Source: a virus
Lineage: Duplodnaviria; Heunggongvirae; Uroviricota; Caudoviricetes
Strand: one strand, 5' to 3'
Virus record (IMG/VR): IMGVR_UViG_2541047766_000005
Length of the DNA: 40,812 nucleotides
Part shown: positions 1,316 through 40,812 of the stretch, piece after piece
How the letters are laid out: every line of letters starts with the position of its first letter
How positions within the stretch are numbered: position 1 is the stretch's first letter
The notes under the pieces: generated by a model
The model's database searches: none
What the model was told of the DNA's origin: nothing
What the model saw: only the letters and a program-made list of their open reading frames with translations
Translations under genes and position numbers: made by a program

Positions 1316-1420
1316 AATCCGTTGAAGCCTGCTTTTTTATACTAAGTTGGCATTATAAAAAAGCATTGCTTATCAATTTGTTGCAACGAACAGGTCACTA
1401 TCAGTCAAAATAAAATCATT
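1316..1420. other. attL: Lambda attL (B arm, 15-bp core GCTTTTTTATACTAA at 1331-1345, P' arm with arm-type Int sites)
   Basis: Exact lambda core at 1331-1345; left flank TGAAGCCT matches the attB B arm; right flank GTTGGCATTATAAAAAAGCATTGCTTATCAATTTGTTGCAACGAACAGGTCACTATCAGTCAAAATAAAATCATT matches the lambda P' arm (arm sites at 1391-1412). Confidence 0.93.
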
Positions 1421-2489
1421 ATTTGATTTCAATTTTGTCCCACTCCCTGCCTCTGTCATCACGATACTGTGATGCCATGGTGTCCGACTTATGCCCGAGA
1501 AGATGTTGAGCAAACTTATCGCTTATCTGCTTCTCATAGAGTCTTGCAGACAAACTGCGCAACTCGTGAAAGGTAGGCGGATCCCCTTCGAAGGAAAGAC
1601 CTGATGCTTTTCGTGCGCGCATAAAATACCTTGATACTGTGCCGGATGAAAGCGGTTCACGACGAGTAGATGCAATTATGGTTTCTCCGCCAAGAATCTC
1701 TTTGCATTTATCAAGTGTTTCCTTCATTGATATCCCGAGAGCATCAACATGCAATGTTGTTGGGATGGCAATTTTTACGCCTGTTTTGCTTTGCTCGACA
1801 TAAAGATATCCATCTACGATATCAGACCACTTCATTTCGCATAAATCACCAACTCGCTGCCCGGTAACAACAGCCAGTTCCATTGCAAGTCTGAGCCAAC
1901 ATGGTGATGATTCTGCTGCTTGATAAATTTTCAGGTATTCGTCAGCCGTAAGTCTTGATCTCCTTACCTCTGATTTTGCTGCGCGAGTGGCAGCGACAGG
2001 GTTTGTTGTTATATGGCCTTCAGCTATTGCCTCTCGGAATGCATCGCTCAGTGTTGATCTGATTAACTTGGCTGACGCAGCCTTGCCCTCGTCTATGTAT
2101 CCATTGAGCATTGCCGCAATTTCTTTTGTGGTGATGTCTTCAAGTGGAGCATCAGGCAGACCCCTCCTTATTGCTTTAATTTTGCTCATGTAATTTATGA
2201 GTGTCTTCTGCTTGATTCCTCTGCTGGCGAGGATTTTTTCGTAGCGATCAAGCCATGAATGTAACGTAACAGAATTATCACTGTTGATTCTCGCTGTCAG
2301 AGGCTTGTGTTTGTGTCCTGAAAATAACTCAATGTTGGCCTGTATAGCTTCAGTGATTGCTATCCTCCTGTCTCTGCCTAATCCGAACTCTTTACCCGTC
2401 CTTGGGTCCCTGTAGCAGTAATATCCATTGTTTCTTAAATAAAGGTTAGGGGGTAAATCCCGGCGCTCATGACTTCGCCTTCTTCCCAT
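1419..2489 (-). CDS. int: Lambda-type tyrosine integrase
   Basis: 356-aa ORF whose translation matches lambda Int as I recall it (MGRRRSHERRDLPPNLYLRNNGYYCYRDPRTGKEF...); adjacent to attL P' arm. Confidence 0.95.
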   Translation of the reverse strand: MGRRRSHERRDLPPNLYLRNNGYYCYRDPRTGKEFGLGRDRRIAITEAIQANIELFSGHKHKPLTARINSDNSVTLHSWLDRYEKILASRGIKQKTLINYMSKIKAIRRGLPDAPLEDITTKEIAAMLNGYIDEGKAASAKLIRSTLSDAFREAIAEGHITTNPVAATRAAKSEVRRSRLTADEYLKIYQAAESSPCWLRLAMELAVVTGQRVGDLCEMKWSDIVDGYLYVEQSKTGVKIAIPTTLHVDALGISMKETLDKCKEILGGETIIASTRREPLSSGTVSRYFMRARKASGLSFEGDPPTFHELRSLSARLYEKQISDKFAQHLLGHKSDTMASQYRDDRGREWDKIEIK

Positions 2490-2685
2490 TTCTGATCCTC
2501 TTCAAAAGGCTACCTGTTACTGGTCGATTTAAGTCAACCTTTACCGCTGATTCGTGGAACAGATACTCTCTTCCATCCTTAACCGGAGGAGGGAATATCC
2601 TGCATTCGCGCACCCATCGACGAACTGTTTCAAGGCTTCTTGGGCGTCGCTGGCGAGCGTTCCACTCCTGAAGAGTCAAGTACAT
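2467..2685 (-). CDS. xis: Excisionase
   Basis: 72-aa ORF MYLTLQEWNARQRRPRSLETVRRWVRECRIFPPPVKDGREY... matching lambda Xis; overlaps int 5' end as in lambda. Confidence 0.93.
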   Translation of the reverse strand: MYLTLQEWNARQRRPRSLETVRRWVRECRIFPPPVKDGREYLFHESAVKVDLNRPVTGSLLKRIRNGKKAKS

Positions 2686-2949
2686 CGCAAAGTCTCCGCA
2701 ATTACACGCAAGAAAAAACCGCCATCAGGCGGTTTGGTGTTCTTTCAGTTCTTCAATTCGAATATTGGTTACGTCTGCATGTGCTATCTGCGCCCATATC
2801 ATCCAGTGGTTATAGCAGTCGTTGATGTCCTCGGCTTCGATAACTCTGTTGAATGGTTCTCCATTCCATTCACCTGTGACTCGGAAGTGCATTTATCATC
2901 TCCATAAAACAAAACCCGCCGTAGCGAGTTCAGATAAAAGAAATCCGCA

Positions 2950-3402
2950 TTAAGCGGCGTCGGTGAATTCAAATAAAAAACCGGCTTGCGCCGGCTCTCT
3001 CATCTTTCTGTCTACCCATGCTGATATCGATGGCGGATGCACCTTTTCAATAGCAGCGCGAAGTACAGCTGTACGTGCCAGTTTGTCGGTAATCTCAGGA
3101 AATCGCTTCTCTGTCTTCGGTACGTTAACAGCAACATTAGTAGAATCCGCACTGGCGAACGGATACATACCAAGAACTCTCACGTCGAGCATTCGAAGAC
3201 CATGAATTTTCACTTTCAAATTACGATTGATATAAATCTCAGTAAAAACTTCATCCATTCTCTGTTCCCACCATTTAGAGCGTATGTGCCTGTGTGGGCC
3301 GCAGCATCCAATCGCCACCCATTCAAATTTTCCAGAAAGGCGTAAAAGACGTTCAATTGATTCGTCGTATGCCAGACCGGAACCGCTTTTGATTTTAGCC
3401 AA
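2950..3402 (-). CDS. Hypothetical protein (possible C-terminal portion of the frameshifted gene, or spurious)
   Basis: 150-aa ORF overlapping 3216-3402 of the upstream ORF in a different frame; its 3' end contains a terminator-like hairpin (2981-2995) plus T-tract on the minus strand. Confidence 0.35.
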   Translation of the reverse strand: MAKIKSGSGLAYDESIERLLRLSGKFEWVAIGCCGPHRHIRSKWWEQRMDEVFTEIYINRNLKVKIHGLRMLDVRVLGMYPFASADSTNVAVNVPKTEKRFPEITDKLARTAVLRAAIEKVHPPSISAWVDRKMREPAQAGFLFEFTDAA

Positions 3403-3749
3403 TCAGGAACCAACTCAATCTGCTCGTCGTTTTCTGCCTCTGTCCCTTCGATAACGTCAGGTATAAGAAACCATTCAATTCTGCTGAACCACTTCCCAAC
3501 AAAGTCGTAGAATTTTGCTCGTCTCTTACTCCAGTCTACCGGAGTGCCTTTCTTTAATGCTTTCATCCAGTCGCTAAAAGCGCCGTTATCAAGGCGTATA
3601 TCACAAGGGAACATGGCAATCTTTTTCATCTGCTCTGGTCTGGCAAATGAAACAAAAGCCCCACTATCACGGTAAAGGGCTTTAATAAGCATATCTGTAG
3701 GGGCATGCTCATCACCCCATATTGGGCTGCCGTGAAAGTGGATGGTCAT
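3216..3749 (-). CDS. Hypothetical early-left protein (N-terminal portion of a possibly frameshifted gene)
   Basis: 177-aa ORF; its 3' third overlaps the next ORF (2950-3402) in another frame. Confidence 0.5.
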   Translation of the reverse strand: MTIHFHGSPIWGDEHAPTDMLIKALYRDSGAFVSFARPEQMKKIAMFPCDIRLDNGAFSDWMKALKKGTPVDWSKRRAKFYDFVGKWFSRIEWFLIPDVIEGTEAENDEQIELVPDWLKSKAVPVWHTTNQLNVFYAFLENLNGWRLDAAAHTGTYALNGGNREWMKFLLRFISIVI

Positions 3750-3807
3750 ATTATCCCCATATAAAAGAAATACCCGCGAGTGCGAGGATTGTTATGTAAT
3801 ATTTGGT

Positions 3808-4089
3808 TTAATCATCTATATGTTTTGTACAGAGAGGGCAAGTATCGTTTCCACCGTACTCGTGATAATAATTTTGCACGGTATCAGTCATTTCTCGCAC
3901 ATTGCAGAATGGGGATTTGTCTTCATTAGACTTATAAACCTTCATGGAATATTTGTATGCCGACTCTATATCTATACCTTCATCTACATAAACACCTTCG
4001 TGATGTCTGCATGGAGACAAGACACCGGATCTGCACAACATTGATAACGCCCAATCTTTTTGCTCAGACTCTAACTCATTGATACTCAT
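3808..4089 (-). CDS. Hypothetical Cys-containing small protein
   Basis: 93-aa ORF with AAGGAG Shine-Dalgarno 8 nt upstream of ATG; several Cys pairs (possible metal binding). Confidence 0.55.
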   Translation of the reverse strand: MSINELESEQKDWALSMLCRSGVLSPCRHHEGVYVDEGIDIESAYKYSMKVYKSNEDKSPFCNVREMTDTVQNYYHEYGGNDTCPLCTKHIDD

Positions 4090-4291
4090 TTATAAACTCC
4101 TTGCAATGTATGTCGTTTCAGCTAAACGGTATCAGCAATGTTTATGTAAAGAAACAGTAAGATAATACTCAACCCGATGTTTGAGTACGGTCATCATCTG
4201 ACACTACAGACTCTGGCATCGCTGTGAAGACGACGCGAAATTCAGCATTTTCACAAGTGTTATCTTTTACAAACCCGTATTCCTGCTCATA

Positions 4292-4843
4292 TCACTCTCC
4301 TTTGATGCGAATGCCTGTTGCAATGCTGTTTATGATGCTGTCAGTGCATGGGGTAGAAAGCTGGGCATCTCCAGCAATTTTCATGACCTCAACATCTGCA
4401 TATCGAATACCGAGGTGTATCAGACCGGCTATACCTGACTTAAGCCGAGCATTTTCCATAAACAGATCCTTTGCCCGCTGTTTTTCTGCCTCAAGCTCAA
4501 CGCGCAGCCTCCCAACCGTAAGCGCAATCTCCTCGTTCTCCTGGTCGCGGCGTTTGATGTACTGCTGGTTTCTTTCCCGTTCATCCAGTAGTGTCAGCAC
4601 GGTAGCCGGATTGGCTGCAGCGATGAATTCAGCATTGGCCTGCTGTTCCATTTGGAAATCTTCATCGAAACCGCTTTCAGGATGCGCTCCTTCAATTCTG
4701 CAAATGGGAATATATCCAGCAGCCTCGCGATGAATTAGCGCATCATCACCATCAAATCGGCCCTCTCCATATTCGAGCGACCACTCGCCACACGTTGCTT
4801 TTTCTGCCTTAGCACGCAGTGCCTGATAATCAATCTTGCTCAC
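4292..4843 (-). CDS. Ead/Ea22-like early protein
   Basis: 183-aa ORF; N-terminus (S)[19 protein letters not shown] resembles the Ead/Ea22 family of lambdoid phages; GTG start 6 nt after GGAGG. Confidence 0.6.
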   Translation of the reverse strand: MSKIDYQALRAKAEKATCGEWSLEYGEGRFDGDDALIHREAAGYIPICRIEGAHPESGFDEDFQMEQQANAEFIAAANPATVLTLLDERERNQQYIKRRDQENEEIALTVGRLRVELEAEKQRAKDLFMENARLKSGIAGLIHLGIRYADVEVMKIAGDAQLSTPCTDSIINSIATGIRIKGE

Positions 4844-5244: not shown

Positions 5245-5526
5245 TCATGATTTACTCTCCATGAACTGGTCAACAGCCATGCTAAGTGATACACCTAAAG
5301 TCTCGATATGCTGCTGAATATCCTGTAGCGTCTGCGCCTGAGATAACAGGATTTCACGGTTGCATAACTCTTTGACCAGATGCTCAAACTTGCTGTAATG
5401 ACCGATACGACTTAGTGTTTCTTTCCCTGCATTCTCGCCTTCTTTGATAATTCCTCTTTCGCTAAGAATCAGATCGTGTTTGGTTCCGGTGATAACGTAT
5501 TTGCCGAGGTCGATGTTTAGCTTCAT
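5245..5526 (-). CDS. Hypothetical early protein
   Basis: 93-aa ORF co-oriented with the leftward early operon. Confidence 0.5.
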
Positions 5527-5542
5527 TGTTAATTATTCCATG

Positions 5543-5857
5543 TTAATTTATTCGTATGCCTGCTCTTTCTTCATCGAGTCTTTTTAGCTTGTATCGCATA
5601 GCCCTTACTGAATAAATTGAACGGCAGGTTGCAATTGCTATTTCTTCTGCGGAGAACTTACCGAAAAGTGATACTTCGGCTCTTGTCCAGCGTCTTCCAC
5701 GAAGTCGGCTAACAATGTCAGCACCAATCCTTGTTGCTTTCGCCATTACTGCTTTTTCAGTCCTTTCCAGTTTTTCAGCGATAACTTCAACTGGCATTGT
5801 CGCCGCCACTTCGCGCAAGAAATCGACTTCCCATTTCTCCCATGAAGTCTTTTTCAT
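5543..5857 (-). CDS. Hypothetical early protein with two internally similar helix-rich segments
   Basis: 104-aa ORF, co-oriented, 12 nt after preceding gene. Confidence 0.5.
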   Translation of the reverse strand: MKKTSWEKWEVDFLREVAATMPVEVIAEKLERTEKAVMAKATRIGADIVSRLRGRRWTRAEVSLFGKFSAEEIAIATCRSIYSVRAMRYKLKRLDEERAGIRIN

Positions 5858-5868
5858 AGTCGAGACCG

Positions 5869-6351
5869 TTATTTGATAAGAAGTGAAGGTTTCCCAACTT
5901 TGAGTTGAGCGCCGGGGATATTTATTCCTGCTTTTAGTTGGTGTTTGATTGCCAGTTTGTCGGCTTTAATTGTCGTTTCAAACTCAACGTATTCAGGAGG
6001 AAGGGCGCTTGAGTCGATGATTTCTACAGTTTCTGACGGTTTGCGGATTGTTACCTGGTGAATACCTGCTCGAATCTTTTTCTTGCCAACCATTTCAAGC
6101 GATGACGCTATATACGCCATAATGCTGTCAATCTTATTTTGAATTACTGCGGCTCGCTCATTTAGTGACTGTGCCTCTTCCTTGAGGCGTTCAGCATAAC
6201 CAGATTCATTTTTAATAATGGCAAGAAGTTGCTCTATTTTATCGGTAAATTCTCCTTCCATGCCTTCTATTGTGTCAGCAATCATCTCTGGCTCTAAATC
6301 TGAATCTATCAGCTTTGCGTATTCATTGGCAATTTCATACAGTTTGCTCAC
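5869..6351 (-). CDS. Siphovirus Gp157-like protein (commonly paired with RecT/Erf recombinases)
   Basis: 160-aa ORF directly downstream of recT; GTG start at 6351 6 nt after GGAGG (track ORF starts at TTG 6357); family assignment from memory. Confidence 0.55.
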   Translation of the reverse strand: MSKLYEIANEYAKLIDSDLEPEMIADTIEGMEGEFTDKIEQLLAIIKNESGYAERLKEEAQSLNERAAVIQNKIDSIMAYIASSLEMVGKKKIRAGIHQVTIRKPSETVEIIDSSALPPEYVEFETTIKADKLAIKHQLKAGINIPGAQLKVGKPSLLIK

Positions 6352-7237
6352 TGGCAACCTCCAGTTTCGCTTTGCATTCTGCGTAAATGGCTTGTACGTT
6401 CTGCTGCAATTTCATTCCAGATGTCAGGCGATATGCTTCTGCAAAATATCTCTTCAAATCATCCATGTTTTCAGCCTGAGCCATTTCATCACAAAGAAGT
6501 TGTGCTTTTTCCATTATTTCCTGCTGGCGTTTCCGTTCATCTTCGCGGATATCTTCCTCTGATTTGTGCGGCATAACCGGTTCCTGATGCATACCCTCAT
6601 CTTCGTTAAGCAGGTGAATGGCATTATCCAGTCGCTGGGCTTTAGGCCAGTATTTGCTGGCGCGTTTAACTATTGTTTTACGCGCCATCTCTTCCCAGAA
6701 TGTCTTCCACGGTCCATTCTTTGCCTTGCTCGTTGCTTCCACAGCTTTAATTTCTGCCAGACTCATTTCTTCAGTCAGGTAGTCACCATCTGCTGTTTTA
6801 ACCGTGCAATAACCACCAACAATAGAGCCTCGCTCACCAAATGCGTTGTATTTGTGGGTTGGCGCTGAATCAAGGCCGTTTGATTCATAGGTGTCGTTTG
6901 AGTACACCAGTTTACATTGCCCCCACTTAATTGATCCTGTCGACTGTGCAAGGTGAAGTAATCCCATATAGCTGATATCAAGGCAAACCATGCCGTCGCG
7001 CGGAACTAGATAAGCAAGTTTGCTGGCCGGGTTTAAGGTGATGCCGATCGCCGCAACATTGATGATGGCGTTCTGTGCGCTGGTTGGATTTGCCAGTGCC
7101 GTTTTAGCCAGGTAATCATTTTTCTGGAAATACTGAATTGCAAACTGGCTTTCCTTAGCCCATGTCACCGTCTGTTCAGTCAATGCTCCGCAGAATAACT
7201 GCTCCTGCTGTTTAACGAATTCAACGATATTGCTCAT
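6335..7237 (-). CDS. recT: RecT-family single-strand annealing recombinase
   Basis: 300-aa ORF with RecT-like core; occupies the bet position of the lambda early-left operon; GGAGAAG SD upstream. Confidence 0.8.
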   Translation of the reverse strand: MSNIVEFVKQQEQLFCGALTEQTVTWAKESQFAIQYFQKNDYLAKTALANPTSAQNAIINVAAIGITLNPASKLAYLVPRDGMVCLDISYMGLLHLAQSTGSIKWGQCKLVYSNDTYESNGLDSAPTHKYNAFGERGSIVGGYCTVKTADGDYLTEEMSLAEIKAVEATSKAKNGPWKTFWEEMARKTIVKRASKYWPKAQRLDNAIHLLNEDEGMHQEPVMPHKSEEDIREDERKRQQEIMEKAQLLCDEMAQAENMDDLKRYFAEAYRLTSGMKLQQNVQAIYAECKAKLEVASEQTV

Positions 7238-7545
7238 GCTGCTTCTCCATAAATGTGTCTGCGTTTGAATATTGCGAAGGCATATTCAGCCTTAACTCTT
7301 TCGGTTATTGCATCCCAGAACCATTCAGCGGCTTTTTCCTGATAGTCACAGTCATCATCTTCCAGCCAGTCGATAGCGTCCTTAGTGTGTTCATCTGGCT
7401 TATATGAGCGAAGCATTTCGCTTATTGGGTCGCAGCGTTTGCAGAGGCGATCAACTTCACTGTTGATTCGTTCGTAATCTTCATCAGTAAAACTTGCGAT
7501 GATTTGCGATATTTCACGCTTATCATTCAGAGTCAGAATCATCAT
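7234..7545 (-). CDS. Hypothetical early protein
   Basis: 103-aa ORF, ATGA overlap with recT. Confidence 0.5.
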   Translation of the reverse strand: MMILTLNDKREISQIIASFTDEDYERINSEVDRLCKRCDPISEMLRSYKPDEHTKDAIDWLEDDDCDYQEKAAEWFWDAITERVKAEYAFAIFKRRHIYGEAA

Positions 7546-7627
7546 CTTTCTCCTGTTCTTTGTGCTGATTGAGCATTTTGTTCATCTGACGAATGAATTC
7601 TTCGTCTGACCAGTTATCTGTAAAACT

Positions 7628-7797
7628 CATGGGCGGCCTTGTTGTTTCAAAATATCCCAAAGCTTTTCGAGCAAACTTTTCATTCTTGGTTGTTTAAAGT
7701 CTGCTCCGGTTAGAATGTTTTTTCGTGAATGCTGTACCGATAAAATCGGGTTGAAAGGGCGAACCGATGCCGCCCCTGCAATAGCGAACTGTTGCAT
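7628..7797 (-). CDS. Possible CIII-like small protein
   Basis: 56-aa ORF not in the supplied track (below its length cutoff); MQQFAIAG... and C-terminal SLLEKLWDILKQQG weakly resemble lambda CIII; position between Ea10-like and the recombination genes as in lambda. Confidence 0.35.
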
Positions 7798-7872
7798 AGG
7801 ATGCTCCTTCTGTTTGATTGCATAACGAAAACGCCTCGAGTGAAGCGTTATTGGTATGCGGTAAAGCCGCGC

Positions 7873-8241
7873 TCAGGCGGCTTTGATAGTCATATCATCT
7901 GAATCAAATATTCCAGATGTGTCGATATCGGTAATTCTTATTCCTTCGCTACCATCCATTGGAGGCCATCCTTCCTGACCATTTCCATCATTCCAGTCGA
8001 ACTCACACACAACACCATATGCATTTAAGTCGCTTGAAATTGCTATAAGCAGAGCATGTTGCGCTAGCATGATTAATACAGCATTTAATACAGAGCCGTG
8101 TTTTTTGAGTCTGTATTCAGAGTCTGACCAGAAATTATTAATCTGGTGAAGTTTTTCCTCTGTCATTACGTCATGGTCGATTTCAATTTCTATTGATGCT
8201 TTCCAGTCGTAATCAATGATGTATTTTTTGATGTTTGACAT
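7873..8241 (-). CDS. Ea10-like protein (DUF2528-type)
   Basis: 122-aa ORF, same length and position as lambda Ea10; a hairpin plus T-tract lies just upstream on the minus strand. Confidence 0.55.
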   Translation of the reverse strand: MSNIKKYIIDYDWKASIEIEIDHDVMTEEKLHQINNFWSDSEYRLKKHGSVLNAVLIMLAQHALLIAISSDLNAYGVVCEFDWNDGNGQEGWPPMDGSEGIRITDIDTSGIFDSDDMTIKAA

Positions 8242-8260
8242 CTGTTCATATCCTCATAGA

Positions 8261-8287
8261 TAAAAAATTGCCCTCACATTGGAGGGC
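8261..8287 (-). terminator. Intrinsic terminator within leftward early operon (tL-like)
   Basis: Minus-strand hairpin GCCCTC-CAATGT-GAGGGC followed by AATTTTTTA. Confidence 0.5.
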
Positions 8288-8423
8288 AAAGAAGATTTCC
8301 AATAATCAGAACAAGTCGGCTCCTGTTTAGTTACGAGCGACATTGCTCCGTGTATTCACTCGTTGGAATGAATACACAGTGCAGTATTTATTCTGTTGTT
8401 TATGCCAAAAATGAAGGCCACCA

Positions 8424-8624
8424 TCAGGCAGCCTTGTTGTTCTGTTTACCAAGTTCTCTGGCAATCATTGCCGTCGTTCGTATTGCCCATTTATCGACAT
8501 ATTTCCCATCTTCCATTACAGGAAACATTTCTTCAGGCTTAACCATGCATTCCGATTGCAGCTTGCATCCATTGCATCGTTTGAATTGTCCACACCATTG
8601 ATTTTTATCAATAGTCGTAGTCAT
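8424..8624 (-). CDS. ral: Restriction alleviation protein Ral
   Basis: 66-aa ORF MTTTIDKNQWCGQFKRCNGCKLQSEC..., matching lambda Ral in length and (from memory) sequence. Confidence 0.65.
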   Translation of the reverse strand: MTTTIDKNQWCGQFKRCNGCKLQSECMVKPEEMFPVMEDGKYVDKWAIRTTAMIARELGKQNNKAA

Positions 8625-8702
8625 ACGGATAGTCCTGGTATTGTTCCATCACATCCTGCGGATGCTCTTCGAACTCTTCAAATTCTTCTTCCATATCTCA
8701 CC

Positions 8703-8906
8703 TCAAATAAGTGGTTTGCTGCCTAATTTCATTTTCTGGCGACCAACACAAGTCACACCCATTTCACTGCGTGGCTTGCTGTAGTAAAGATTGTGCCTGT
8801 CTTTTAACCACATCAGGCTCGGTGGTTCTCGTGTACCCCTACAGCGAGAAATCGGATAAACTCTATTCACCCCTACAGAGAGCAAAAGAGAAACGCCGAT
8901 GAACAA
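8703..8906 (-). pseudogene. Fossil of a lambda-type N gene (only the C-terminal ~28 codons are N-like)
   Basis: ORF ends ...YYSKPRSEMGVTCVGRQKMKLGSKPLI, closely resembling the lambda N C-terminus (...YSKPGERGITCSGRQKIKGKSIPLI); upstream part has no N similarity and overlaps the SieB-like start. Confidence 0.45.
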
Positions 8907-9480
8907 CTCATGGTGGCAGGAACTAATGCATTTTTTCCTGCAAGGAATGACACTTAAACAGTTGATTCATATGCTAATCATCCTGATCATATTGATTATT
9001 GTTATGCCGGTAAGCGTAAAAGAATGGATAAACCTGCATAATCCAGAAATCCTTCCTCATTATTGGATGTATTACATCCTGTTGTTCTGCGTTAGCTATG
9101 TGCTTAACGGTGTAGTTAATTCCGCTTATCACGCTGTGACTGAAAGAATTGAGGTATCCGCTGCTCAGAAGCGCAAATCCAAAGAAGAAAAATATGTGCA
9201 AGATTTGTTTGATTCGTTAACTCTTGGAGAAAGAGCGTATTTGGCATTCGCTGTAGCCGCTAATAACCAGCTACAAACGGAAAAGGGAGCTCATGAATCA
9301 ATTTCATTGCTCAAAAAAGGCCTCCTCGTTCGAAGGCCTCCTGCTGTTGGATATCCTGATACCGACCGTTTTATTATCCCGGAAAGCTATAGACATGAGT
9401 GCTACATTAGGTTTGCCGGGAAGGCAGACAGCCTTATGGATGAACTTATCGCTCAGGATAAGCATGGCAAAAACAAGTAA
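8899..9480 (+). CDS. sieB: SieB-like superinfection exclusion membrane protein
   Basis: 193-aa ORF on the opposite strand inside the early-left operon between ral and N; two N-terminal hydrophobic helices; N-terminus MNNSWW... recalled as SieB-like. Confidence 0.6.
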   Translation: MNNSWWQELMHFFLQGMTLKQLIHMLIILIILIIVMPVSVKEWINLHNPEILPHYWMYYILLFCVSYVLNGVVNSAYHAVTERIEVSAAQKRKSKEEKYVQDLFDSLTLGERAYLAFAVAANNQLQTEKGAHESISLLKKGLLVRRPPAVGYPDTDRFIIPESYRHECYIRFAGKADSLMDELIAQDKHGKNK

Positions 9481-9496
9481 TTAGCAAATGAATTTA

Positions 9497-9769: not shown

Positions 9770-9877
9770 GTTGACCTCCGATGATTGACTTTGGCGGTGA
9801 CGCGCCGGGTGCTTATCTTCCGGTTGCCGTCGTGCAGCTGCACTTCACGTCACCCCAAAGCCAACTACTCTTTGGTT

Positions 9878-9917
9878 CCCGCATTTCGGCGGGACAATCC
9901 CATCAATGTTAAAGAGC
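9878..9917 (-). promoter_or_regulatory. nutL (boxA GCTCTTTAA and boxB hairpin CCCGCCGAAATGCGGG)
   Basis: On the leftward transcript, boxA-like GCTCTTTAACA then a 5-bp-stem hairpin; the same boxA and an identical boxB occur at 11547-11589 downstream of cro. Confidence 0.7.
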
Positions 9918-32136: not shown

Positions 32137-32803
32137 CGAAAGCTTCAAGAATAAATTGCTTCCTATGAATGGGTATATGAAAGGCGGCAGCGACTCCGGC
32201 TCTAAAGCCCAGGCACGCGCAACTGAAAAGGGTATCGAATTGCAGCGTGAAATGTGGCAAACGAACATGCAAAACCTTGCACCGTTCACGCCACTCGCTC
32301 AGCAGTACGTATCACAGTTGCAGAATCTTTCCTCTCTTCAGGGGCAAGGTCAGGCGCTTAACCAGTATTACAACTCCCAGCAGTATAAAGACCTTGCAGG
32401 GCAGGCGCGTTACCAGAGTCTGGCAGCAGCAGAGGCAACGGGTGGATTAGGCTCTACAGCAACAGGAAACCAGTTAGCAGCAATCGCACCTACACTCGGT
32501 CAAAACTGGTTGTCAGGTCAGATGAACAACTACAACAATCTGGCAAATATTGGCCTTGGCGCTCTTACAGGTCAGGCAAACGCCGGACAGAACTATGCCA
32601 ACAACGTCAGCCAGTTGTATCAACAGCAGGCGGCAGCATCTGCGGCTAATGCTAACCGACCATCAGGATTGCAATCAGCTTTGGGCGGTGCCATGAGCGG
32701 TGCGGCATCAGGGGCGATGATTGGCTCTGTGGTGCCTGGAATAGGTACAGCTGTTGGCGCTATTGGTGGCGGTATTATCGGTGGTCTTGGATCATTGTTT
32801 TAA
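32123..32803 (+). CDS. Ejection (DNA transfer) protein, P22 gp7-like
   Basis: 226-aa Gln/Ala/Gly-rich ORF with C-terminal hydrophobic glycine-zipper segment, in the gp7 position. Confidence 0.65.
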   Translation: MLVLSESFKNKLLPMNGYMKGGSDSGSKAQARATEKGIELQREMWQTNMQNLAPFTPLAQQYVSQLQNLSSLQGQGQALNQYYNSQQYKDLAGQARYQSLAAAEATGGLGSTATGNQLAAIAPTLGQNWLSGQMNNYNNLANIGLGALTGQANAGQNYANNVSQLYQQQAAASAANANRPSGLQSALGGAMSGAASGAMIGSVVPGIGTAVGAIGGGIIGGLGSLF

Positions 32804-32812
32804 GGTGGGAAT

Positions 32813-34114
32813 ATGGCTACTTGGCAACAAGGAATCAACTCAGGCGGTTTTCTTGCTGGTATCGGTGGGCAAAACTCAAATGCGCCAAAGGCAAGTGATG
32901 TAAGTGAGGCGTTGGCCTATATTCGCCAGAACAACGAAATGGAGCGTTCAGGTCGCAATAACATCGGCCTTCAGGCGTTGCAGGGACTTGGTAGTGTCGC
33001 TCAAACATATCAAGCCGCAAAGCAACAGGAAGCGGATGCTGCATTCCAAAAAGAATATGCGGCAGCCATCCAGTCCGGTGATCGACAGCAGGTTCGAGAT
33101 CTGATGACCAAATATCCTGGTCAATTAGAGAAGATTCAGTCTGGTATGAAGTGGGCAGACGAAGACCAGCGCAATTCTATCGGCACCTTAGCGGCTGGCG
33201 CACGCCTTGCGGCCTCGTCTCCAGAAGCAATGCAATCATGGCTGCAAAACAACGCCAAGGAACTGACTCGCGTCGGTGTTGACCCTAATAACGTTGCTCA
33301 GATGTATCAGCAGAATCCTTCAGGATTTGGTGAGTTTGTTGATCACCTTGGAATGTCAGCGCTTGGTCCTAATGATTATTTCAATGTTCAGGACAAGATG
33401 GCTGGTCGTGAGATTGACCGAGGCAGGCTGGCAGAGACAATCCGCAGCAATCAGGCCGGAGAAGCACTAACAGCTCGAGGTCAGGACATCCAGATACGTG
33501 GACAGAACATCAGCGCACAGAATGCTGCTCTTTCCCGCGAAATACAAAGAGCAGAATTACAAGAAAAGGCTCTGGACAGACAGATAGCCAGAGAAAGCAA
33601 TCAGTTAAAGCTTGAAGAGTTAAAGCAGAAACAGGCAGATGTTCGGCAAAAGGCTGACATAGCCCGCGCGGACAGACAGGCCGCCGCTCAGGGCGCTGTT
33701 GATACGTTCAGCACTGCGCTTGATTCTCTCAACGAGATAGAGCAAAGCCCCGGCCTTTCAAAAGCAGTAGGCATTCGCTCAGCGTTTCCGACAGTTCCTG
33801 GATCCGATGCGGCTAACTTTGAAGCAAGGCTAGATACCTTTAAAGCTCAAACTTTCCTCCCTATGGTGCAGTCCCTGAAGGGGATGGGGGCTCTTTCAGA
33901 TGCTGAGGGTAAAAAATTATCCGATGCGGTTGGTGCTCTAAGTCCCAAAATGAGTGAAAAGGCTTTTCGTGACTCTATCGGAAAGATTCGAAATCAGCTT
34001 GAAAGCAAGTTGAGCACTGTTAAAAAACAGTTTGATTATCAGGAGCCGGTGCAGAATACGCCAGGACAACAATCTCCTGCTGGCAGTAACTTTTCTTCAC
34101 TATGGGGTGATTAA
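32813..34114 (+). CDS. Ejection protein, P22 gp20-like
   Basis: 433-aa ORF in the gp20 position. Confidence 0.65.
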   Translation: MATWQQGINSGGFLAGIGGQNSNAPKASDVSEALAYIRQNNEMERSGRNNIGLQALQGLGSVAQTYQAAKQQEADAAFQKEYAAAIQSGDRQQVRDLMTKYPGQLEKIQSGMKWADEDQRNSIGTLAAGARLAASSPEAMQSWLQNNAKELTRVGVDPNNVAQMYQQNPSGFGEFVDHLGMSALGPNDYFNVQDKMAGREIDRGRLAETIRSNQAGEALTARGQDIQIRGQNISAQNAALSREIQRAELQEKALDRQIARESNQLKLEELKQKQADVRQKADIARADRQAAAQGAVDTFSTALDSLNEIEQSPGLSKAVGIRSAFPTVPGSDAANFEARLDTFKAQTFLPMVQSLKGMGALSDAEGKKLSDAVGALSPKMSEKAFRDSIGKIRNQLESKLSTVKKQFDYQEPVQNTPGQQSPAGSNFSSLWGD

Positions 34115-36111
34115 TGGCTAAAGCATGGAAAGATGTTATCGCCTCTCCACAGTATCAGGCGTTAGCACCAGAACAAAAAGCGCAGGCTCAGGAGCAATAC
34201 TTCAATGAAGTCGTGGCACCGCAAGCCGGAGAAAATGCAGAGCAGGCTAAGCAAGCTTTCTATGCAGCCTATCCATTGTCATCTGTGCAGCCAGTGGAGA
34301 CACAGCAACCAGTAGCACAGCAACAACCACAGCAAAGTAGATTTATGTCTGACCTTGGTGAAGCAGTGAAAGAGACTGGTCGCGGACTGGTGCAGGCTGG
34401 CGTGAACGTGGCAAACATACCTGCATCAATTGCCGATGCTGTAACAAGCGCGGCGGCATGGGCTGGCGGTAAACTCGGCATTGGCGATGGGACATATCAA
34501 CCAGCGCCACGAGTAACAACGCAGGGATTAGAACAGGACTTTGGTCTTCAGCAAGGCGCGCTGACTCCACAAACGACAGAGGGCAGGGTATTTGCTGAGG
34601 CATTGCCTTATCTCACTCCTGCTGGCGTTGAGAGAGCGGCAACACAGGCACCAACACTTGCTGGTCGAATTGCTCAGGGTGCAACTCGCCTTCTCGCAGA
34701 AAACGCAGTCGGAACACTTGCTGCAAATAGTGCGAAAGATGATGCGGAAGCACTCGCCACCGATTTAGGCGTTGGTGTTCTGGCTGGAGGCGCTATTAAC
34801 GCTGCTGGACGTGGATTAGGTGCTGCTTATCGTGGCGTTCGTGGTGCTATCGCACCAGAAGCGCAACAGGCTATCAGATTTGCAGAGCGTGAAGGGGTGC
34901 CTCTTCATACTACTGACCTCTTACAGCCTACTTCCCGCGTCGGAAAAATGGCGCAAACGACAGCAGAAAATATCCCCCTGGCTGGCACAAGCGGAATGAG
35001 AGCAACGCAACAGGAAGCGAGAAGTCAGTTGGTGCAGAGATTTGCTGATAAATTCGGTGAGTATGATCCAGCGGTTATTATTGACAGCCTTAAAGCGAAA
35101 ACATCAGGAATTCGTCGTGCTGCTGGGAACCGTCTTGAGCAGGTTCAGAATGCAATGGCGGGAGTCAACATTCAGCCTGCGCGAGCAATTCAGCAGATTG
35201 ATACTGAGATATCTAATCTGCAGAAGCTTGGTAAGGTTGCTGATAACGAGACGATTTCAAAACTTCAATCATATCGTGATGAGCTTGTTCGCAATGCTGG
35301 TCCTGATGGTCCGGTAAATCTGGATTTGAAACAATTAAGCGATCTGCGCAGCCAGTTCAGAATGGACGTGAAGGGGGAGCGACCAGTGTTACCAAACCGT
35401 TCCGATGCCGCCATTCAGCGCGTTTACAAGGCAATGACCGACGATATCAATAGTGTCATTGGTCAGAATCTTGGCAACGATACTCTCCGGAAATATCAGC
35501 AGGCCAATGCCGTCTACGCTGACGAAGCGGCGAAACTAAAGAATACCAGGCTGAAGAATGTTCTCATGAAAGGCGATCTGACGCCGGAAGTTGTCAACAA
35601 CATGCTATTCAGCAAGAACAAATCGGAAATTAAGACTCTGTATAACTCAGTTGGTCGTGTTGGCAGGGCGCAAATGCGCAATGGCATCATTGGAAAGGCG
35701 ATGGAGAAATCTGGCGGATCCCCTGACCAGTTCCTTCGGCAGCTTAACATCCTGCAAAACCAGACTGGCATCACATTTAAGGGTCAGGACGCTGCTTATC
35801 TGAAAGGATTAAAAAACTACCTGCAATCCACGCAGCAGGCTGCAAAAGCGGCAGTAACAACACCCACAGGGCAGCAAACCATCCCGTTCATTATTGGGTA
35901 TGGTACGGCAATGAACCCGGCGACAACTGGCGCAGCAGTAAGCTACGGACTTCTTACTCGCGCCTATGAGAGCGAGCCATTCAGAAATGCAATGCTCAGA
36001 ATGGCAAACACCCCACGTGGATCAACAGCGTTTGAGAAAGCCATGCAGCAGGCACAAAAGGCAATTAGCGCCATGACTCAGGGTGCTAAGTCTGATGCGT
36101 TGTCAGAATAG
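34114..36111 (+). CDS. Ejection protein, P22 gp16-like
   Basis: 665-aa ORF in the gp16 position. Confidence 0.65.
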   Translation: MAKAWKDVIASPQYQALAPEQKAQAQEQYFNEVVAPQAGENAEQAKQAFYAAYPLSSVQPVETQQPVAQQQPQQSRFMSDLGEAVKETGRGLVQAGVNVANIPASIADAVTSAAAWAGGKLGIGDGTYQPAPRVTTQGLEQDFGLQQGALTPQTTEGRVFAEALPYLTPAGVERAATQAPTLAGRIAQGATRLLAENAVGTLAANSAKDDAEALATDLGVGVLAGGAINAAGRGLGAAYRGVRGAIAPEAQQAIRFAEREGVPLHTTDLLQPTSRVGKMAQTTAENIPLAGTSGMRATQQEARSQLVQRFADKFGEYDPAVIIDSLKAKTSGIRRAAGNRLEQVQNAMAGVNIQPARAIQQIDTEISNLQKLGKVADNETISKLQSYRDELVRNAGPDGPVNLDLKQLSDLRSQFRMDVKGERPVLPNRSDAAIQRVYKAMTDDINSVIGQNLGNDTLRKYQQANAVYADEAAKLKNTRLKNVLMKGDLTPEVVNNMLFSKNKSEIKTLYNSVGRVGRAQMRNGIIGKAMEKSGGSPDQFLRQLNILQNQTGITFKGQDAAYLKGLKNYLQSTQQAAKAAVTTPTGQQTIPFIIGYGTAMNPATTGAAVSYGLLTRAYESEPFRNAMLRMANTPRGSTAFEKAMQQAQKAISAMTQGAKSDALSE

Positions 36112-36275
36112 CTTTGCAAACACCAGGAACGTGCAAAAACCAAATATATAGAGCGCAATATTCAACAGATCTCTTTGCATAGACTCATCTCATAATTAAC
36201 AAATCATAACTGACATTAGTGCAATGCTGGGCAAGTTGCATCTTGTTCGGCATTGCTACGTCCGGAGCAAATTAA

Positions 36276-38039
36276 ATGACAGACATTACAGCCAATGTTG
36301 TGGTAAGCATGCCTTCGCAACTCTTCACTATGGCGCGTTCTTTTAAAGCCGTTGCCAATGGCAAAATTTATATCGGTAAAATTGACACTGACCCGGTAAA
36401 TCCTGAAAACCAGATTCAGGTTTATGTAGAGAACGAAGACGGCTCTCACGTTCCTGTTTCGCAACCAATCATCATTAACGCTGCTGGTTATCCGGTATAT
36501 AACGGACAGATTGCAAAGTTCGTTACCGTACAGGGACATTCAATGGCTGTGTATGACGCATATGGCACACAGCAGTTCTACTATCCAAACATTCTCAAGT
36601 ATGACCCGGACCAGTTCCGGCAGGAGCTAGAGGGAGAGTTTGCAAGCGGGGCATTCCCTGAAACAGTAAAGTATAAGTATGGATTACCATCTGTTGTTGA
36701 TGGTGCTGTCTTCAGGAATGTACAAGAAAAGCTGGATGATTTTGTATTTTTGGAAGACTTTGGTGGCAAAGATGATTCTGGAACAACAGATAATAGCATA
36801 GCCTTTCAGAAGGCATTCGCTTCAGGCGCAAGAAAAATTCACTTGAAAGGTTCTGGCATATATGGAATGAAGACCAGAGACATTGAGCTTCCAGCAAAAT
36901 ATGAAATTATTGGTAACGCAAAAAATCCAGAGATTAAATATCTAGGTTCTGATTCAACCTTCACTATGTTTACCCTTACAGGGTCTGGCCCGGCTGCTAG
37001 TCAGTGGAAACAGGGTGGCATATTCCGAGATGTAGTCATATCATCCGACGTGCTGATTAACTGGATTGTTTGTCGTCATGTCCAGAACTTAGAGTTTGAT
37101 CGGGTGTTTTTCTATAACGCACAAACTACTATGAACAACTACCATTACGTTAACTTCTTCCGGTGCGAACGTTGGGGTAGTCCATTCTTGGGGCGTGCGG
37201 ATTTAAATACTGTGGAGTTCATCAGCGAATCACCTAAGTTTCTTATGTGTTTCAGTTCTAACTCTCCGATTGACGTATGGGATACCGCCGATTTATTTAT
37301 TAGTGAATGCTCAATGTTTGCTGGAGATTTTGCGGTAAGAACACGCACAACACTTGGTGAGATGGGTGGAACAGACCAATTCGCGGGTTATCCGGTTATA
37401 ATTTCAAATAGCGTTTTTGATGCCATCAACGGTACTGCTTTTGATATGGAGAGTCTGGCTTACGCTACCATCAGCGGTAACATTATTAGTGCAGGGAGGA
37501 TAAACAATAGTCGTGGAATTAATATTAAAGGGGCAAGAAATCTAACATTTACGGGAAACACTATCACTTACTGTGGTGAGTTCGGCATGGTATTGGAAAA
37601 TGCTGAACAATGTTCTTTGTCTAATAATATATTCAACGGAAATAAGACTGGTGGGCTATCGTTGGTAAACTGTAAAGAAATATCTGTTATTGGCGGCTCT
37701 ATGGGTACGTCTTATATCAGAGGTGGATACTACGTGCAACCACTTGGGATCACAGACCCCGCCGATAACTGTAACGGCATAACCATCAATGGCGTTTCTT
37801 TCGATAGCGATATGACGACCAAGATTTACCTTAATACATCGGAAGAGCGCAAAAATCGTATTATAGCTTGTCTAGGTGTTAATGATACTCAGACGACTTA
37901 TCAAAACCGTGGATCTACTGCGCAGCGCCCTACAGCACCAGTCAGTGGGCAGATGTATTATGATACAACGCTAGGTCTTCCAATATGGTATAACACAGTA
38001 TCATCTGAATGGAAGAGGGCGGATGGTACAAGTGTATGA
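36276..38039 (+). CDS. Tailspike protein (P22 gp9-like head-binding domain plus distinct receptor-binding domain)
   Basis: 587-aa ORF; first ~110 aa match the P22 tailspike head-binding domain ([11 protein letters not shown]...YDPDQ); the rest diverges, consistent with a different O-antigen specificity. Confidence 0.9.
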
Positions 38040-38070: not shown

Positions 38071-39537
38071 TTAATTGCAGTTGAATGTAATGTTTTTATC
38101 GTAAACAAAAATCTTCTTATCTCCGACGTCAATAACCTTTGATGGATTACCAATCTCTTTAATTGTTATATTTCTCATAACCTCGTCATCTGTAATTATG
38201 AAATTTCCTCCGCGCTCATACCAATAGTTTTTTGACAACCATTTATTGCATGCAAGTATATTCAAACCTCGGTTTACATCAATCGGAGCAATTGATATGT
38301 CTCCATCTATACTTGCTGATGAAGCAAACCAGAAAGATGCATACCCGTTTGTGAGGTTATTCTGCCTTACAGTGTGTTTTATCTGATTTATAATATCATT
38401 AGAATTGTCTTTTTTTTCATGCATATAAATAGAACAAAAGAGAATAAATGTTGTAACAACCCCTAATGCGATGAATTTCCACCCTCTGGAGTTGTTAGAT
38501 CTGCCAATAACAACAGGTGCTAGTATAAAAAATGGAACGATATATCTTATAGTCCATTCATCTATTGGACGGTTACTTGCAAGGTATGCTGGTATCATTA
38601 TAATACAAGCTATACATATAGCCATATTGATCATGGAGGTAAAGAATATTTCCTTTACTGACATTGCAACTAATATAAGAAGTAAAATCATTACAACAAA
38701 ACAAAAAACAGAAATAAGCGCTGTAATATCAGAAGGTGGCTTGCCAAAGAAGAAAGCTCCACTGTATAGGAGGAATCCTTTTACGAATAAGTATAAATTA
38801 TTCAGGATATCATCAAATGCAACAAATGTTGGATCTGGAACGCCTGGCAAAATGTACCAGTTATGAGCTCTTGCGTACATGGTCATAATTTTTGATGCAA
38901 CATATGCAAATATAGTTGCAACTAGTATGATCAGATTTTTTTGGCTTTTGGTTTTTACTATAAAAATCACTGATGATATTGCTACTGGTGCAATAATGAG
39001 TAGCTTTATGATGTCATCACTGAAACAAGCTAGAGCTAACACTAAAATATAAAGAGATAGAGAAATTAACGATCTTGTTTTGGAAAAATTGTCTAACATT
39101 ATGAAGCAAAACAACATGGATACATATGTGCCGACATGTATCACAGGTATTAATACGTTTAATACTGCAAACCCAGAAGGCAGCGCAACGCAAAATGAAA
39201 TGGCCCATAACGATGAAAGCCTTTCTTTTGAAAGATAAAATGTCATCAATGTAACCATTGAATACATAATTGCCGGTATGCAGTATGCTTGGTACTGTCC
39301 GTACCAGAATACCTTTGAAGCAAGCCCGTACCATATTATGTCTGTAAAATAGAATGATACTGTAGAGAGATACCATCCACTAAGCGTCCAATTTCCGTCC
39401 GCAATGTCCTTACCCTCAAGAAGTCCAGAAACAGCATCCGAACTTGGCAAAATCTGTTTTGAAATCGAGGCGTAGAAGAAAGTCAGGAATATAAATCCAA
39501 TGATGTATATGGCTGTTTTTTTTATATTTAAAGTCAT
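38071..39537 (-). CDS. Serotype-specific O-antigen glucosyltransferase (GtrC-type polytopic membrane protein)
   Basis: 488-aa multi-pass membrane ORF, very AT-rich, immediately downstream of gtrB in the gtr operon. Confidence 0.75.
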   Translation of the reverse strand: MTLNIKKTAIYIIGFIFLTFFYASISKQILPSSDAVSGLLEGKDIADGNWTLSGWYLSTVSFYFTDIIWYGLASKVFWYGQYQAYCIPAIMYSMVTLMTFYLSKERLSSLWAISFCVALPSGFAVLNVLIPVIHVGTYVSMLFCFIMLDNFSKTRSLISLSLYILVLALACFSDDIIKLLIIAPVAISSVIFIVKTKSQKNLIILVATIFAYVASKIMTMYARAHNWYILPGVPDPTFVAFDDILNNLYLFVKGFLLYSGAFFFGKPPSDITALISVFCFVVMILLLILVAMSVKEIFFTSMINMAICIACIIMIPAYLASNRPIDEWTIRYIVPFFILAPVVIGRSNNSRGWKFIALGVVTTFILFCSIYMHEKKDNSNDIINQIKHTVRQNNLTNGYASFWFASSASIDGDISIAPIDVNRGLNILACNKWLSKNYWYERGGNFIITDDEVMRNITIKEIGNPSKVIDVGDKKIFVYDKNITFNCN

Positions 39538-39538
39538 T

Positions 39539-40453
39539 TTACTTATCCTTTAGAATGTATCTTGGTCGCTGCTTAACTTCAACATAAATTCTTCCTATAT
39601 ACTCTCCAAGAACTCCTATGCCTATTAACTGAACTCCACCAAGAAACAATATTGATACAATGATAGAAGGGTAACCTGGAACACTATTTCCAAACATCAA
39701 TTTATCAGCAATCATCCATGCTCCATAAAGGAATGATAAGGTTGCCACAAACAGGCCTATATAAGTCCACATGCGCAAAGGGAAAGTAGAAAAGCTAGTG
39801 ATCCCTTCCAGCGCCAAGTTCCATAGCTTCCATCCATTGAACTTTGTGCTTCCTGCAACGCGTTCTGCTCGCGCATATTCTACGACATCGGTTCGACCAC
39901 CAACCCAGCTCAGCACACCCTTCATAAACAGGTTTCGTTCTGGCATGAGCTTAATGTTTTCTACTACTTCGCGAGACATGAGCCGGAAGTCGCCAACATT
40001 CTCTTCTATCTGAGGGTTGCTGATTTTGTTATGAAGTTTATAGAACCACTCAGCAGATTTACGCTTCAGCCTGCTGTCAGTGGAGCGGTCAGAGCGTTTA
40101 GCCAGAACCATATCTGCACCGGCCTGCCATTTCTCTATCAAGTGAGGAATAACTTCTATAGGGTCTTGCAGATCAACGTCAATCGGGATAATTGCCTCCC
40201 CGGTAGCATGGTCCAGACCTGCGAACAGGGCAGGTTCTTTGCCGAAGTTACGTGTGAACGACAGCGAAACCACAAGCGGGTCGGCAACAGCAAGCTCGTT
40301 GATAATTGATTCTGTAGCGTCTTTGCTGCCATCGTTTATGAAGACTATCTCGACTTCATGCTGCTGAAGCCCTTCAAATTCGCGCACGGTTTTATAAAAA
40401 ATAGGTATCGTGGCCTCTTCGTTAAAGACCGGAACGACTAAAGAAATTTTCAT
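39539..40453 (-). CDS. gtrB: Bactoprenol glucosyltransferase GtrB (GT2 family)
   Basis: 304-aa ORF with GT2 N-terminal domain (VVPVFNEE...DGSKD) and two C-terminal transmembrane helices. Confidence 0.9.
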
Positions 40454-40812
40454 TTCGCATCCCTAAAGACAATGAACTTTGAATAGACGAAACCGCACAC
40501 CAGGCTGATGGCGGAGAAGGTGACAAGAGTTATCATCGGAGGAAGTGCGCATCTATCAGCAGCCCATCCAACAGTAGCACTCAGTGTTCCCATGAACCCG
40601 ACATATAACATGTAGCGCATCGTTGTAGTTGATGCTTTGAATGTGAATTTTGCATTCGCGAAGAAGCTAAAACTCACAGCCACAACGAAACCTGCGAAGT
40701 TTGCCAGAGCCTGATTGGTATGCGCGGCATAGATACATACACCAAAAACCACCCAGTGTATAAGTGTGTTCAGCACACCAATCGAGGTGTACCTTGCAAA
40801 TATATTTAACAT
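40450..40812 (-). CDS. gtrA: GtrA flippase (bactoprenol-glucose translocase)
   Basis: 120-aa four-helix membrane ORF matching GtrA of serotype-converting phages; start codon at the last three bases of the window. Confidence 0.88.

Follow-up and report, generated by a model that had tools for sequence, protein, structure and literature searches.

What kind of element occupies the bacteriophage lambda attachment site of Escherichia coli PS_131_S11, and whether its lambda-like and P22-like genes belong to one phage or to two, is the question raised by a stretch of 40,812 nucleotides of Caudoviricetes DNA (IMG/VR record IMGVR_UViG_2541047766_000005), referred to over its full length as the window. 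An earlier note, made from the letters of this DNA, had read it as a single P22-like mosaic residing at the lambda attB site next to ybhC. The window corresponds with 100% identity to positions 2993206-3034017 of the PS_131_S11 record NZ_CP145099.1, and nine further complete genomes hold the identical 40.8 kb in the same place, which makes ten carriers in all. The reading of a single mosaic is upheld: on sequence grounds the window very probably contains a single temperate phage, a mosaic of the P22-like group (genus Lederbergvirus) with a complete and apparently intact genome, at the lambda attachment site.

The borders of the element were located in the PS_131_S11 record, in which the window was extended by 6 kb further downstream to a locus of 46.8 kb. 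The 15-bp core of the lambda attachment site, GCTTTTTTATACTAA, occurs there exactly twice, at 1331-1345 and at 41156-41170, with 0.00 copies expected in shuffled sequence. Upstream of the first copy stands ybhC (1-1284, minus strand), while the second copy, attR, is found in the source genome 344 nucleotides past the last base of the window, just beyond its end as had been predicted, and is followed by ybhB, bioA and bioBFCD. The last letters of the window, CAT, are the minus-strand start codon of gtrA, again as described before. The pair of cores and the flanking ybhC and ybhB-bio genes therefore delimit a prophage of 39.84 kb at the classical lambda attB, between ybhC and ybhB in the gal-bio interval.

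Every annotated protein and the full nucleotide sequence were compared with lambda, P22, Sf6, HK620, JEP4, CUS-3 and Gally. The comparison with lambda, P22, Sf6 and HK620 had been proposed by the earlier note, and it confirmed a mosaic in which the structural genes are P22-like in their order. Nucleotide coverage of the prophage amounts to 14% by lambda, 24% by P22, 29% by HK620, 32% by Sf6, 38% each by JEP4 and CUS-3 and 48% by Gally; the best DNA matches are Lederbergvirus phages, and for either half of the prophage, coverage by any one sequenced phage does not exceed about 55-69%. Immunity, replication, late control, lysis, packaging, head, tail and tailspike are each present in one copy. 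All genes that match lytic, lysogenic or virion functions of P22 are open coding sequences annotated by the Prokaryotic Genome Annotation Pipeline, with lengths near those of their counterparts, and the disrupted genes in the window are accessory only. Homologs of lambda A, B, C, E, V, H, J, exo, bet, gam, P, S or R were not found in the element; a scan of the whole window against Rfam at gathering thresholds gave no match, nor did a search for transfer RNA genes.

The integration module is of the lambda type, as proposed. attL (1331-1425) consists of core and P' arm, with the host B arm (1285-1330) in front of it, and is identical to lambda 27724-27818 at 95 of 95 positions. In the attP rebuilt from the two junctions, the P' arm is identical to lambda at 80 of 80 positions. 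The P arm keeps the P1 and P2 arm-type sites; the annotated lambda arm sites int1 and int2 are identical at 18 of 20 and 19 of 20 positions respectively, with the motifs GGTCACTAAT and ATAGTGACTG unchanged. The tyrosine integrase gene int (1419-2489, minus strand) encodes a protein with the Pfam domains Arm-DNA-bind_1 and Phage_integrase, identical to lambda Int at 352 of 356 residues (99%) and to JEP4 Int at 100%, with the catalytic residues R212, K235, H308, R311, H333 and Y342 all intact, and the excisionase gene xis (2467-2685, minus strand) matches lambda Xis at 71 of 72 residues (99%). At the nucleotide level, the stretch 1331-2946 with attP core, P' arm, int, xis and orf55 is 98.2% identical to lambda. 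Integration and excision would proceed via the lambda pathway of Int, Xis and integration host factor (IHF).

The opposite end of the prophage indicates which hosts the phage might address. The tailspike (36276-38039, plus strand) is composed of a head-binding domain and a receptor domain similar to tailspike TSP3 of phage CBA120. Residues 1-113 match Pfam PF09008 Head_binding (E 2.4e-67) and, among Protein Data Bank (PDB) entries, the N-termini of the P22 and Sf6 tailspikes, which bears out the P22-like character ascribed to this protein. Residues 114-586 match the CBA120 TSP3 structures 5w6f/6nw9 (E 7.6e-223; 66% over 473 residues), and the TSP3 active-site residues Glu362, Asp383 and Asp426 are kept as E318, D339 and D382. 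Of these, Glu362 and Asp426 are the catalytic ones in TSP3 (PMC6517402). Among the CBA120 tailspikes, TSP3 is the one with specificity for, and activity on, E. coli O77 (PMC9965104, PMC10408124). The O17/O44/O73/O77/O106 group has a single O-antigen gene cluster and backbone in common; its members are told apart by side branches of glucose, ascribed to the gtr genes of prophages, with O77 as the unbranched form (PMC7685785).

Such a gtr cassette follows the tailspike on the minus strand and ends 344 nucleotides from the attR core. It comprises gtrC (38071-39537), gtrB (39539-40453; 87% identical to the P22 protein) and gtrA (40450-40812; 77% to the P22 protein), with 39542-40852, covering gtrB and gtrA, 74.8% identical to P22 at the nucleotide level. 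GtrC is a polytopic membrane protein of 488 amino acids with roughly eight predicted hydrophobic (transmembrane) segments within residues 7-374, overlaps merged, and a soluble C-terminal part of about 110 residues. A tblastn search with gtrC against 50,697 phage records retrieved no homolog; the Pfam and NCBIfam searches assigned GtrC to no family, and its homologs all bear the name 'hypothetical'. Relatives in Salmonella enterica are 99% and 89% identical, the 89% one deriving from serovar Carrau. Salmonella O:6,14 may share the O77 backbone, a lead with which the 89%-identical GtrC of serovar Carrau would agree.

Together, these genes suggest a scheme in which the tailspike would bind and cleave the mannose-rich O-antigen backbone of the O17/O44/O73/O77/O106 group, while gtrABC would add a glucose side branch to the O77-group O antigen in the lysogen. 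Such a glucosylation would change the serotype and would probably block re-adsorption, as in the seroconverting phages of Shigella and Salmonella.

The link to the host was examined with a chimeric query composed of the tailspike receptor domain, gtrC and the O77-group wzy from strain CNREC_004-43. O77-group wzy is present in 94 of 5426 genomes. The gtrC allele occurs in 25 of these 94, as against none of the 5332 wzy-negative genomes (Fisher p = 3e-46), so that all 25 genomes with the allele, the host of the window included, carry the O17/O44/O73/O77/O106 wzy; likewise, the genomes that combine the tailspike with this gtrC all have O77-group wzy. The cassette is not bound to this prophage. 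In CNREC_004-43 (NZ_CM195844.1 1444882-1448659) the end formed by gtrCBA, P arm, attR and ybhB is 99.3% identical over 3.8 kb and terminates a different prophage with tape-measure, baseplate and tail-fibre genes; since the same gtr-attR end is found on two prophage types, it moves between virion types. Other strains, e.g. DG341-1, KK05-19 and CFSAN061770, show gtrBA-attR-ybhB at 96.9% identity next to a different gtrC, there annotated as 'glucosyltransferase domain-containing protein', and several of these strains carry O77-group wzy. Differing gtrC genes beside attR thus mean that alternative alleles share the lambda-site slot within one serogroup family, and the lambda site looks like a slot in which the O77 serogroup is diversified.

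Several alternatives have to be weighed against a single, complete and O77-directed phage. The locus might be composed of two adjacent elements, a lambda-like remnant with int, xis, the ea genes and Q beside, or interleaved with, a separate P22-like prophage, for which the scatter of the lambda-identical segments (1331-2946, 3758-4315, 7774-8878 and 17066-18365) could be cited. This is, though, highly improbable: the 46.8 kb hold no more than the two core sites, there is exactly one int, repressor, replication module, Q, lysis cassette and terminase, the lambda segments stand in canonical lambdoid order among HK620-, Gally- and CUS-3-type segments, the length of 39.84 kb is close to the 38-42 kb of the P22-like phages compared, and JEP4, a sequenced free phage, has the same Int together with P22-like virion genes. 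An assembly chimera is ruled out by the ten independent complete genomes with the same arrangement. Other observations weigh directly against the single, functional phage proposed here. Several accessory genes are broken: the ea22-like gene at 4424-4843 is truncated, the reading frame at 20853-21059 is interrupted by a stop, and the gene at 2950-3749 is split. The P arm of the rebuilt attP is only 85% identical to lambda (131 of 154 positions), with most differences in lambda 27648-27712, which we take to hold the X1, X2 and F sites for Xis and Fis as well as H2; judged by eye, the IHF consensus WATCAANNNNTTR at H2 is kept (TATCAATGTGTTA, bottom strand). The insertion sequence ISEc31 splits the tailspike between its two domains in five of the ten carriers, ESC818 and four JNE strains (in ESC818 at NZ_AP029046.1 1393747-1394960, corresponding to about position 36600 of the window), by which the element is decaying in part of the population while gtr is kept; in strain G4/9, a 97.7%-identical copy has an IS3 insertion. 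Three genomes have a 91-93% related tailspike fragment without O77-group wzy, so that the relation between receptor specificity and the domain as a whole may be less than simple, and the function of GtrC we infer only from gene position, size and membrane topology. The interrupted tailspike and the several accessory pseudogenes, along with the persistence of the gtrCBA-attR end inside a different prophage in other O77-group strains, would suit a defective, domesticated prophage that is kept for its gtr cassette and other morons and forms no infectious particles. We consider this unlikely, as the genes for P22 functions are all open in the window, disruption is confined to accessory genes, and the catalytic residues of Int and the att sites are intact.

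The association of tailspike and gtrC with O77-group hosts, finally, might reflect clonal descent of a few host lineages and not receptor matching, as the ten full carriers have 100%-identical prophages and may be one clone. Yet the gtrC allele resides in at least two prophage backbones, one P22-like and one of the contractile-tail type, its hosts were obtained on several continents, from human, cow, duck and milk sources, and independent evidence comes from the homology of the receptor domain to a tailspike with experimentally demonstrated action on O77 (PMC9965104), all of which makes descent alone a rather improbable explanation. The gtrC allele could further be taken to determine a sixth glucosylation variant of the O77-group O antigen, one not yet described in serology, with the lambda attB slot as the locus that would diversify the serogroup, a tentative proposal that we regard as possible but somewhat doubtful. 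It is suggested by the confinement of the allele to the O77-group cluster, the failure to find a phage homolog and its absence from the O44 strain 042, by the different gtrC that other O77-group strains have in the slot, and by the failure of both serotyped carrier lineages to agglutinate with group antisera. Carrier ESC818, from a milk-borne outbreak in Japan with >1,800 cases, was published as OUT(OgGp9):H18 and did not react with O17, O44, O73 and O106 sera (PMC10540162), and the strain CNREC-004-43 of the French 2025 outbreak of haemolytic uraemic syndrome, O77g:K92:H18, was negative with all five sera (PMC13094856). Failed agglutination fits a new variant made by gtrC without proving it, as masking by the capsule or other changes of the lipopolysaccharide could also account for it.

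The remaining modules show how the mosaic is assembled. In the left arm, orf55 (2725-2892, minus strand) and ea8.5 (3808-4089, minus strand) encode proteins 95% and 100% identical to those of lambda respectively, and 3758-4315 with ea8.5 is 96.8% identical to lambda at the nucleotide level. Between them, lambda homology stops at 2946 and restarts at 3758, and the gap is filled by an inserted phrog_887-like gene (2950-3749, minus strand). Its two overlapping open reading frames of 102 and 177 amino acids match positions 171-318 and 10-142 of the phrog_887 profile and look like one gene that has been split or frameshifted at the gap. Further on, a Gally-type recombination module with RecT, a Gp157-family protein and small open reading frames (5543-7797, minus strand) shows 87-100% identity to Gally proteins and, over 5523-7859, 92.8% nucleotide identity; lambda exo, bet and gam and P22 erf were not detected in this module. 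Lambda-like sequence then resumes with ea10 (7873-8241, minus strand; 99%) and ral (8424-8624, minus strand; 100%), in agreement with the earlier description of Ral and Ea10, with nucleotide identity to lambda at 95.8% over 7774-8719 and at about 95% over 7774-8878.

The immunity region departs from what had been expected, in that N is not of the P22/Sf6 kind but of the HK620 type. N (9497-9769, minus strand; Pfam N_peptide) is 93% identical to HK620 N as against 38% to gp24 of P22, and has no match to lambda N or to Sf6 N, the latter being itself of the lambda type. The entire block 9501-11971 with N, nutL, the hkaS-like gene, cI, cro, nutR and cII is 97.7% identical to HK620 at the nucleotide level; cI (10523-11239, minus strand) and cro (11346-11540, plus strand) are 100% identical to HK620, and cII (11649-11927, plus strand) belongs to the same HK620-type region. 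The boxB of nutL (9877-9893, minus strand) and the boxB of nutR (11574-11590, within boxA and boxB at 11548-11590, plus strand) form identical hairpins, with 0.00 expected by chance, each behind the boxA GCTCTTTAACA. Early genes would be run by the HK620-type N at these nut sites of the phage's own, and lysogeny would be maintained by repression through a CI of HK620 specificity. The hkaS-like gene (10137-10505, minus strand) of this HK620-type immunity region encodes 122 amino acids, lies between pL/OL and cI, the position of rexAB in lambda, and is 97% identical to HK620 hkaS (phrog_6534); searches of families and defence systems gave no match for it. Ahead of N, sieB for P22-type superinfection exclusion (8899-9480, plus strand) is 83% identical to P22 SieB, with 87.1% nucleotide identity to P22 over 8771-9559. 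Beside ral, the segment 8690-8788 contains a 27-amino-acid tblastn match to the C-terminus of lambda N and is 97-99% identical at the nucleotide level to CUS-3 and Gally. Presumably a remnant of the 3' end of an N gene of the lambda/CUS-3 type, it suggests that the block of sieB and HK620-type N replaced an older N.

Replication is of the P22/CUS-3 type, with an O-like initiator and a DnaB-type helicase (12110-14304, plus strand), the helicase being 99% identical to those of CUS-3, JEP4 and Gally and 90% to gp12 of P22; 12554-14377, with the C-terminus of O and the helicase, is about 97% identical at the nucleotide level to CUS-3, JEP4 and Gally. The nin region (ninB, ninE, ninX, ninF, DUF1364, rusA and ninH; 14598-17079, plus strand) is 95-100% identical to HK620, Gally or CUS-3, and 16244-17799, from the DUF1364 gene over rusA, ninH and Q to pR', shows 96% nucleotide identity to HK620 and Gally. 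The late control region had been called lambda-like from Q over pR' to tR', which holds for the stretch as such: 17066-18365, which extends from Q over pR', leader and terminator to the S start, is 95.3% identical to lambda at the nucleotide level, and in a base-by-base alignment with lambda 44500-44790, the 6S leader and tR' are near-identical to lambda 44560-44790. It holds less well for Q itself (17076-17699, plus strand), which is identical to lambda Q at 206 of 207 residues but also 98% identical to gp23 of P22 and 99% to HK620 Q; a Q common to P22 and HK620 is on its own therefore no mark of lambda ancestry. Among the references compared, only the part downstream of pR' (17800-18365) is lambda-specific within the Q region. 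A promoter scan placed pR' (TTGACT-17-TAAATT) at 17742-17770 on the plus strand, and alignment to lambda placed tR', after the 6S leader, at 17914-17971 on the same strand. At pR', a lambda/P22-type Q would switch on the late genes.

Lambda homology ends at 18365, exactly at the start codon of lambda S. The lysis cassette that follows (18370-19604, plus strand) is neither of the lambda nor of the P22 type and encodes a 67-amino-acid class II holin (Pfam Phage_holin_2_3), a 165-amino-acid lysozyme (Phage_lysozyme) and an Rz spanin, by which lysis would be accomplished. Holin and lysozyme lie at 18370-19048, and the stretch 18366-19130 that contains them is 95-96% identical at the nucleotide level to the Salmonella phages SEN22 and SPN9CC. 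A lysis pair of the phage 21 type, pinholin and SAR endolysin, was also considered; the holin fits the HP1 holin family much better (E 4.4e-21 vs 1e-3 for P21 S). Between the lysis genes and terS, a moron of two genes (21157-22304, minus strand) with a GC content of 0.38 encodes an 81-amino-acid membrane protein and a 301-amino-acid protein of the Vpar_1526/LPO_1073 family (NCBIfam NF045477). The same pair occupies the same junction in lambdoid prophages of Klebsiella, while the searches returned no DNA match in phage records and no PADLOC, PDB sequence or fold match.

The virion genes keep the P22 order throughout thirteen genes at 22326-38039, terS-terL-portal-scaffold-coat-gp4-gp10-gp26-gp14-gp7-gp20-gp16-tailspike, and this gene content predicts a short-tailed P22-like virion. 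A P22/Sf6-like virion, as formerly suggested, is thus confirmed in its gene order, whereas terL, portal, scaffold, coat and gp4 are of the CUS-3 type and only the needle, gp20 and gp16 are of the Sf6 type. The packaging and head genes terS, terL, portal, scaffold, coat, a small open reading frame and gp4 (22326-29393, plus strand) are CUS-3-type, with the terL, portal, scaffold, coat and gp4 proteins 94-100% identical to CUS-3, and 22778-31041, from the C-terminus of terS through gp10, 95.7% identical at the nucleotide level. The coat protein is 94% identical to that of CUS-3, with 8skg as the best solved structure (E 9.6e-266), and 29% identical to the P22 coat (2xyy, E 4.6e-38); a match to the Sf6 coat was not detectable. 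In the tail hub and ejection genes gp10, needle with knob, gp14, gp7, gp20 and gp16 (29403-36111, plus strand), the needle, gp20 and gp16 are Sf6-type; identity to Sf6 is 99% for gp10, 94% for the needle, 85% for gp20 and 98% for gp16, with nucleotide identity of 92.7% over 29393-31671 (gp10 and needle with knob) and of 94.4% over 33158-36625 (gp20 C-terminus, gp16 and the N-terminus of the tailspike). DNA would be packaged by a headful mechanism into a CUS-3-type capsid with Sf6-type needle and ejection proteins. An immI region ahead of the tailspike was not found. Within a block conserved at 92-99%, gp14 (31669-32136, plus strand) is a divergent island, as it is 22% identical to gp14 of P22, Sf6, HK620, CUS-3, JEP4 and Gally (DUF2824, E 1.1e-64); gp7 is about 72% identical.

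How singular is this combination? A P22-like virion with lambda-type integration is already known from JEP4, Gally, phiHS3 and many E. coli genomes. The fusion of modules emphasized by the earlier note is hence real but not unusual, and with no phage covering more than the share of either half given above, the mosaic is a further case of a known architecture. JEP4 (MT740315, Lederbergvirus) shares Int at 100%, the attP-int-xis block at 98.8% and the portal-to-gp10 block at 95.7% nucleotide identity, and its N is also HK620-type; its immunity region is P22 C2-type, it has immI, lambda-type S/R lysis genes and another Q and tailspike, and it lacks the gtr cassette. Gally (OV696608), the active prophage 1 of E. 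coli LF82, for which a published attP primer, TTGCGCTAATGCTCTGTC, matches the P arm described here, likewise joins the P22 plan to a lambda-family Int, although this Int is only 74% identical. RecT module, replication, nin, Q and gp16 are alike, whereas Gally differs by head genes of the Sf6 type, immunity of the P22 type, another tailspike and the lack of gtr genes. According to a 2026 preprint, phiHS3, also P22-like, forms lysogens by integration upstream of ybhC. At least 12 other E. coli genomes, searched for with a 6.2-kb query spanning gp16, tailspike, gtr genes, attR and ybhB, combine a head-binding tailspike with another gtrC allele, gtrBA, attR and ybhB.

Other relatives contribute single blocks. 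CUS-3, a K1-specific phage of E. coli RS218, shares terL, portal, scaffold, coat, gp4 and gp10 at 94-100% in the proteins and, over 8.3 kb, at 95.7% nucleotide identity; it departs from the prophage in integrase, att site, Q and lysis cassette, its tailspike is an endosialidase, and it has an immI region. Sf6 shares the needle with knob, gp20, gp16 and the N-terminus of the tailspike at 85-98%, has no immI between gp16 and tailspike either and places an O-antigen-modifying gene beside attP; it differs in coat type, integrase and att site, its N is lambda-type and its Q phage-21-type, and it carries oac in place of gtrABC. HK620 shares the N-to-cII immunity block (97.7%) and the rusA-ninH-Q-pR' block (96%), but its integrase is IntS-type, its head genes are Sf6-type, its lysis genes S and R are lambda-type, and its tailspike is another one. 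With lambda, the prophage has in common attP core and P' arm, int, xis, orf55, ea8.5, ea10, ral and the stretch from Q to the S start, at 95-100%, as well as the chromosomal site, but not the virion, exo/bet/gam, N, cI, P and S/R genes. The seroconverting Gtr phages P22, SfI, SfII, SfIV, SfV and SfX show the same order of tailspike or tail fibre, gtrC, gtrB, gtrA, attP and int, with gtrA and gtrB at about 80% nucleotide identity in the Sf phages; unlike in these, gtrC here is without a phage homolog and integration takes place at lambda attB.

In its architecture, the prophage is one more case of textbook lambdoid module shuffling, and as P22-like virions with lambda-type attB integration have been documented, the architecture itself changes nothing. 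Its practical value lies in an O77-type tailspike paired with an uncharacterised gtrC confined to the O17/O44/O73/O77/O106 group, which includes sequence type 69 (ST69) lineages behind recent food-borne outbreaks with isolates that escaped O-typing. Should this gtrC account for the failed agglutination, the gtrC alleles of lambda-site prophages could be used to subtype 'O77g' strains from sequence, and the tailspike would be a ready-made reagent for recognising such strains.

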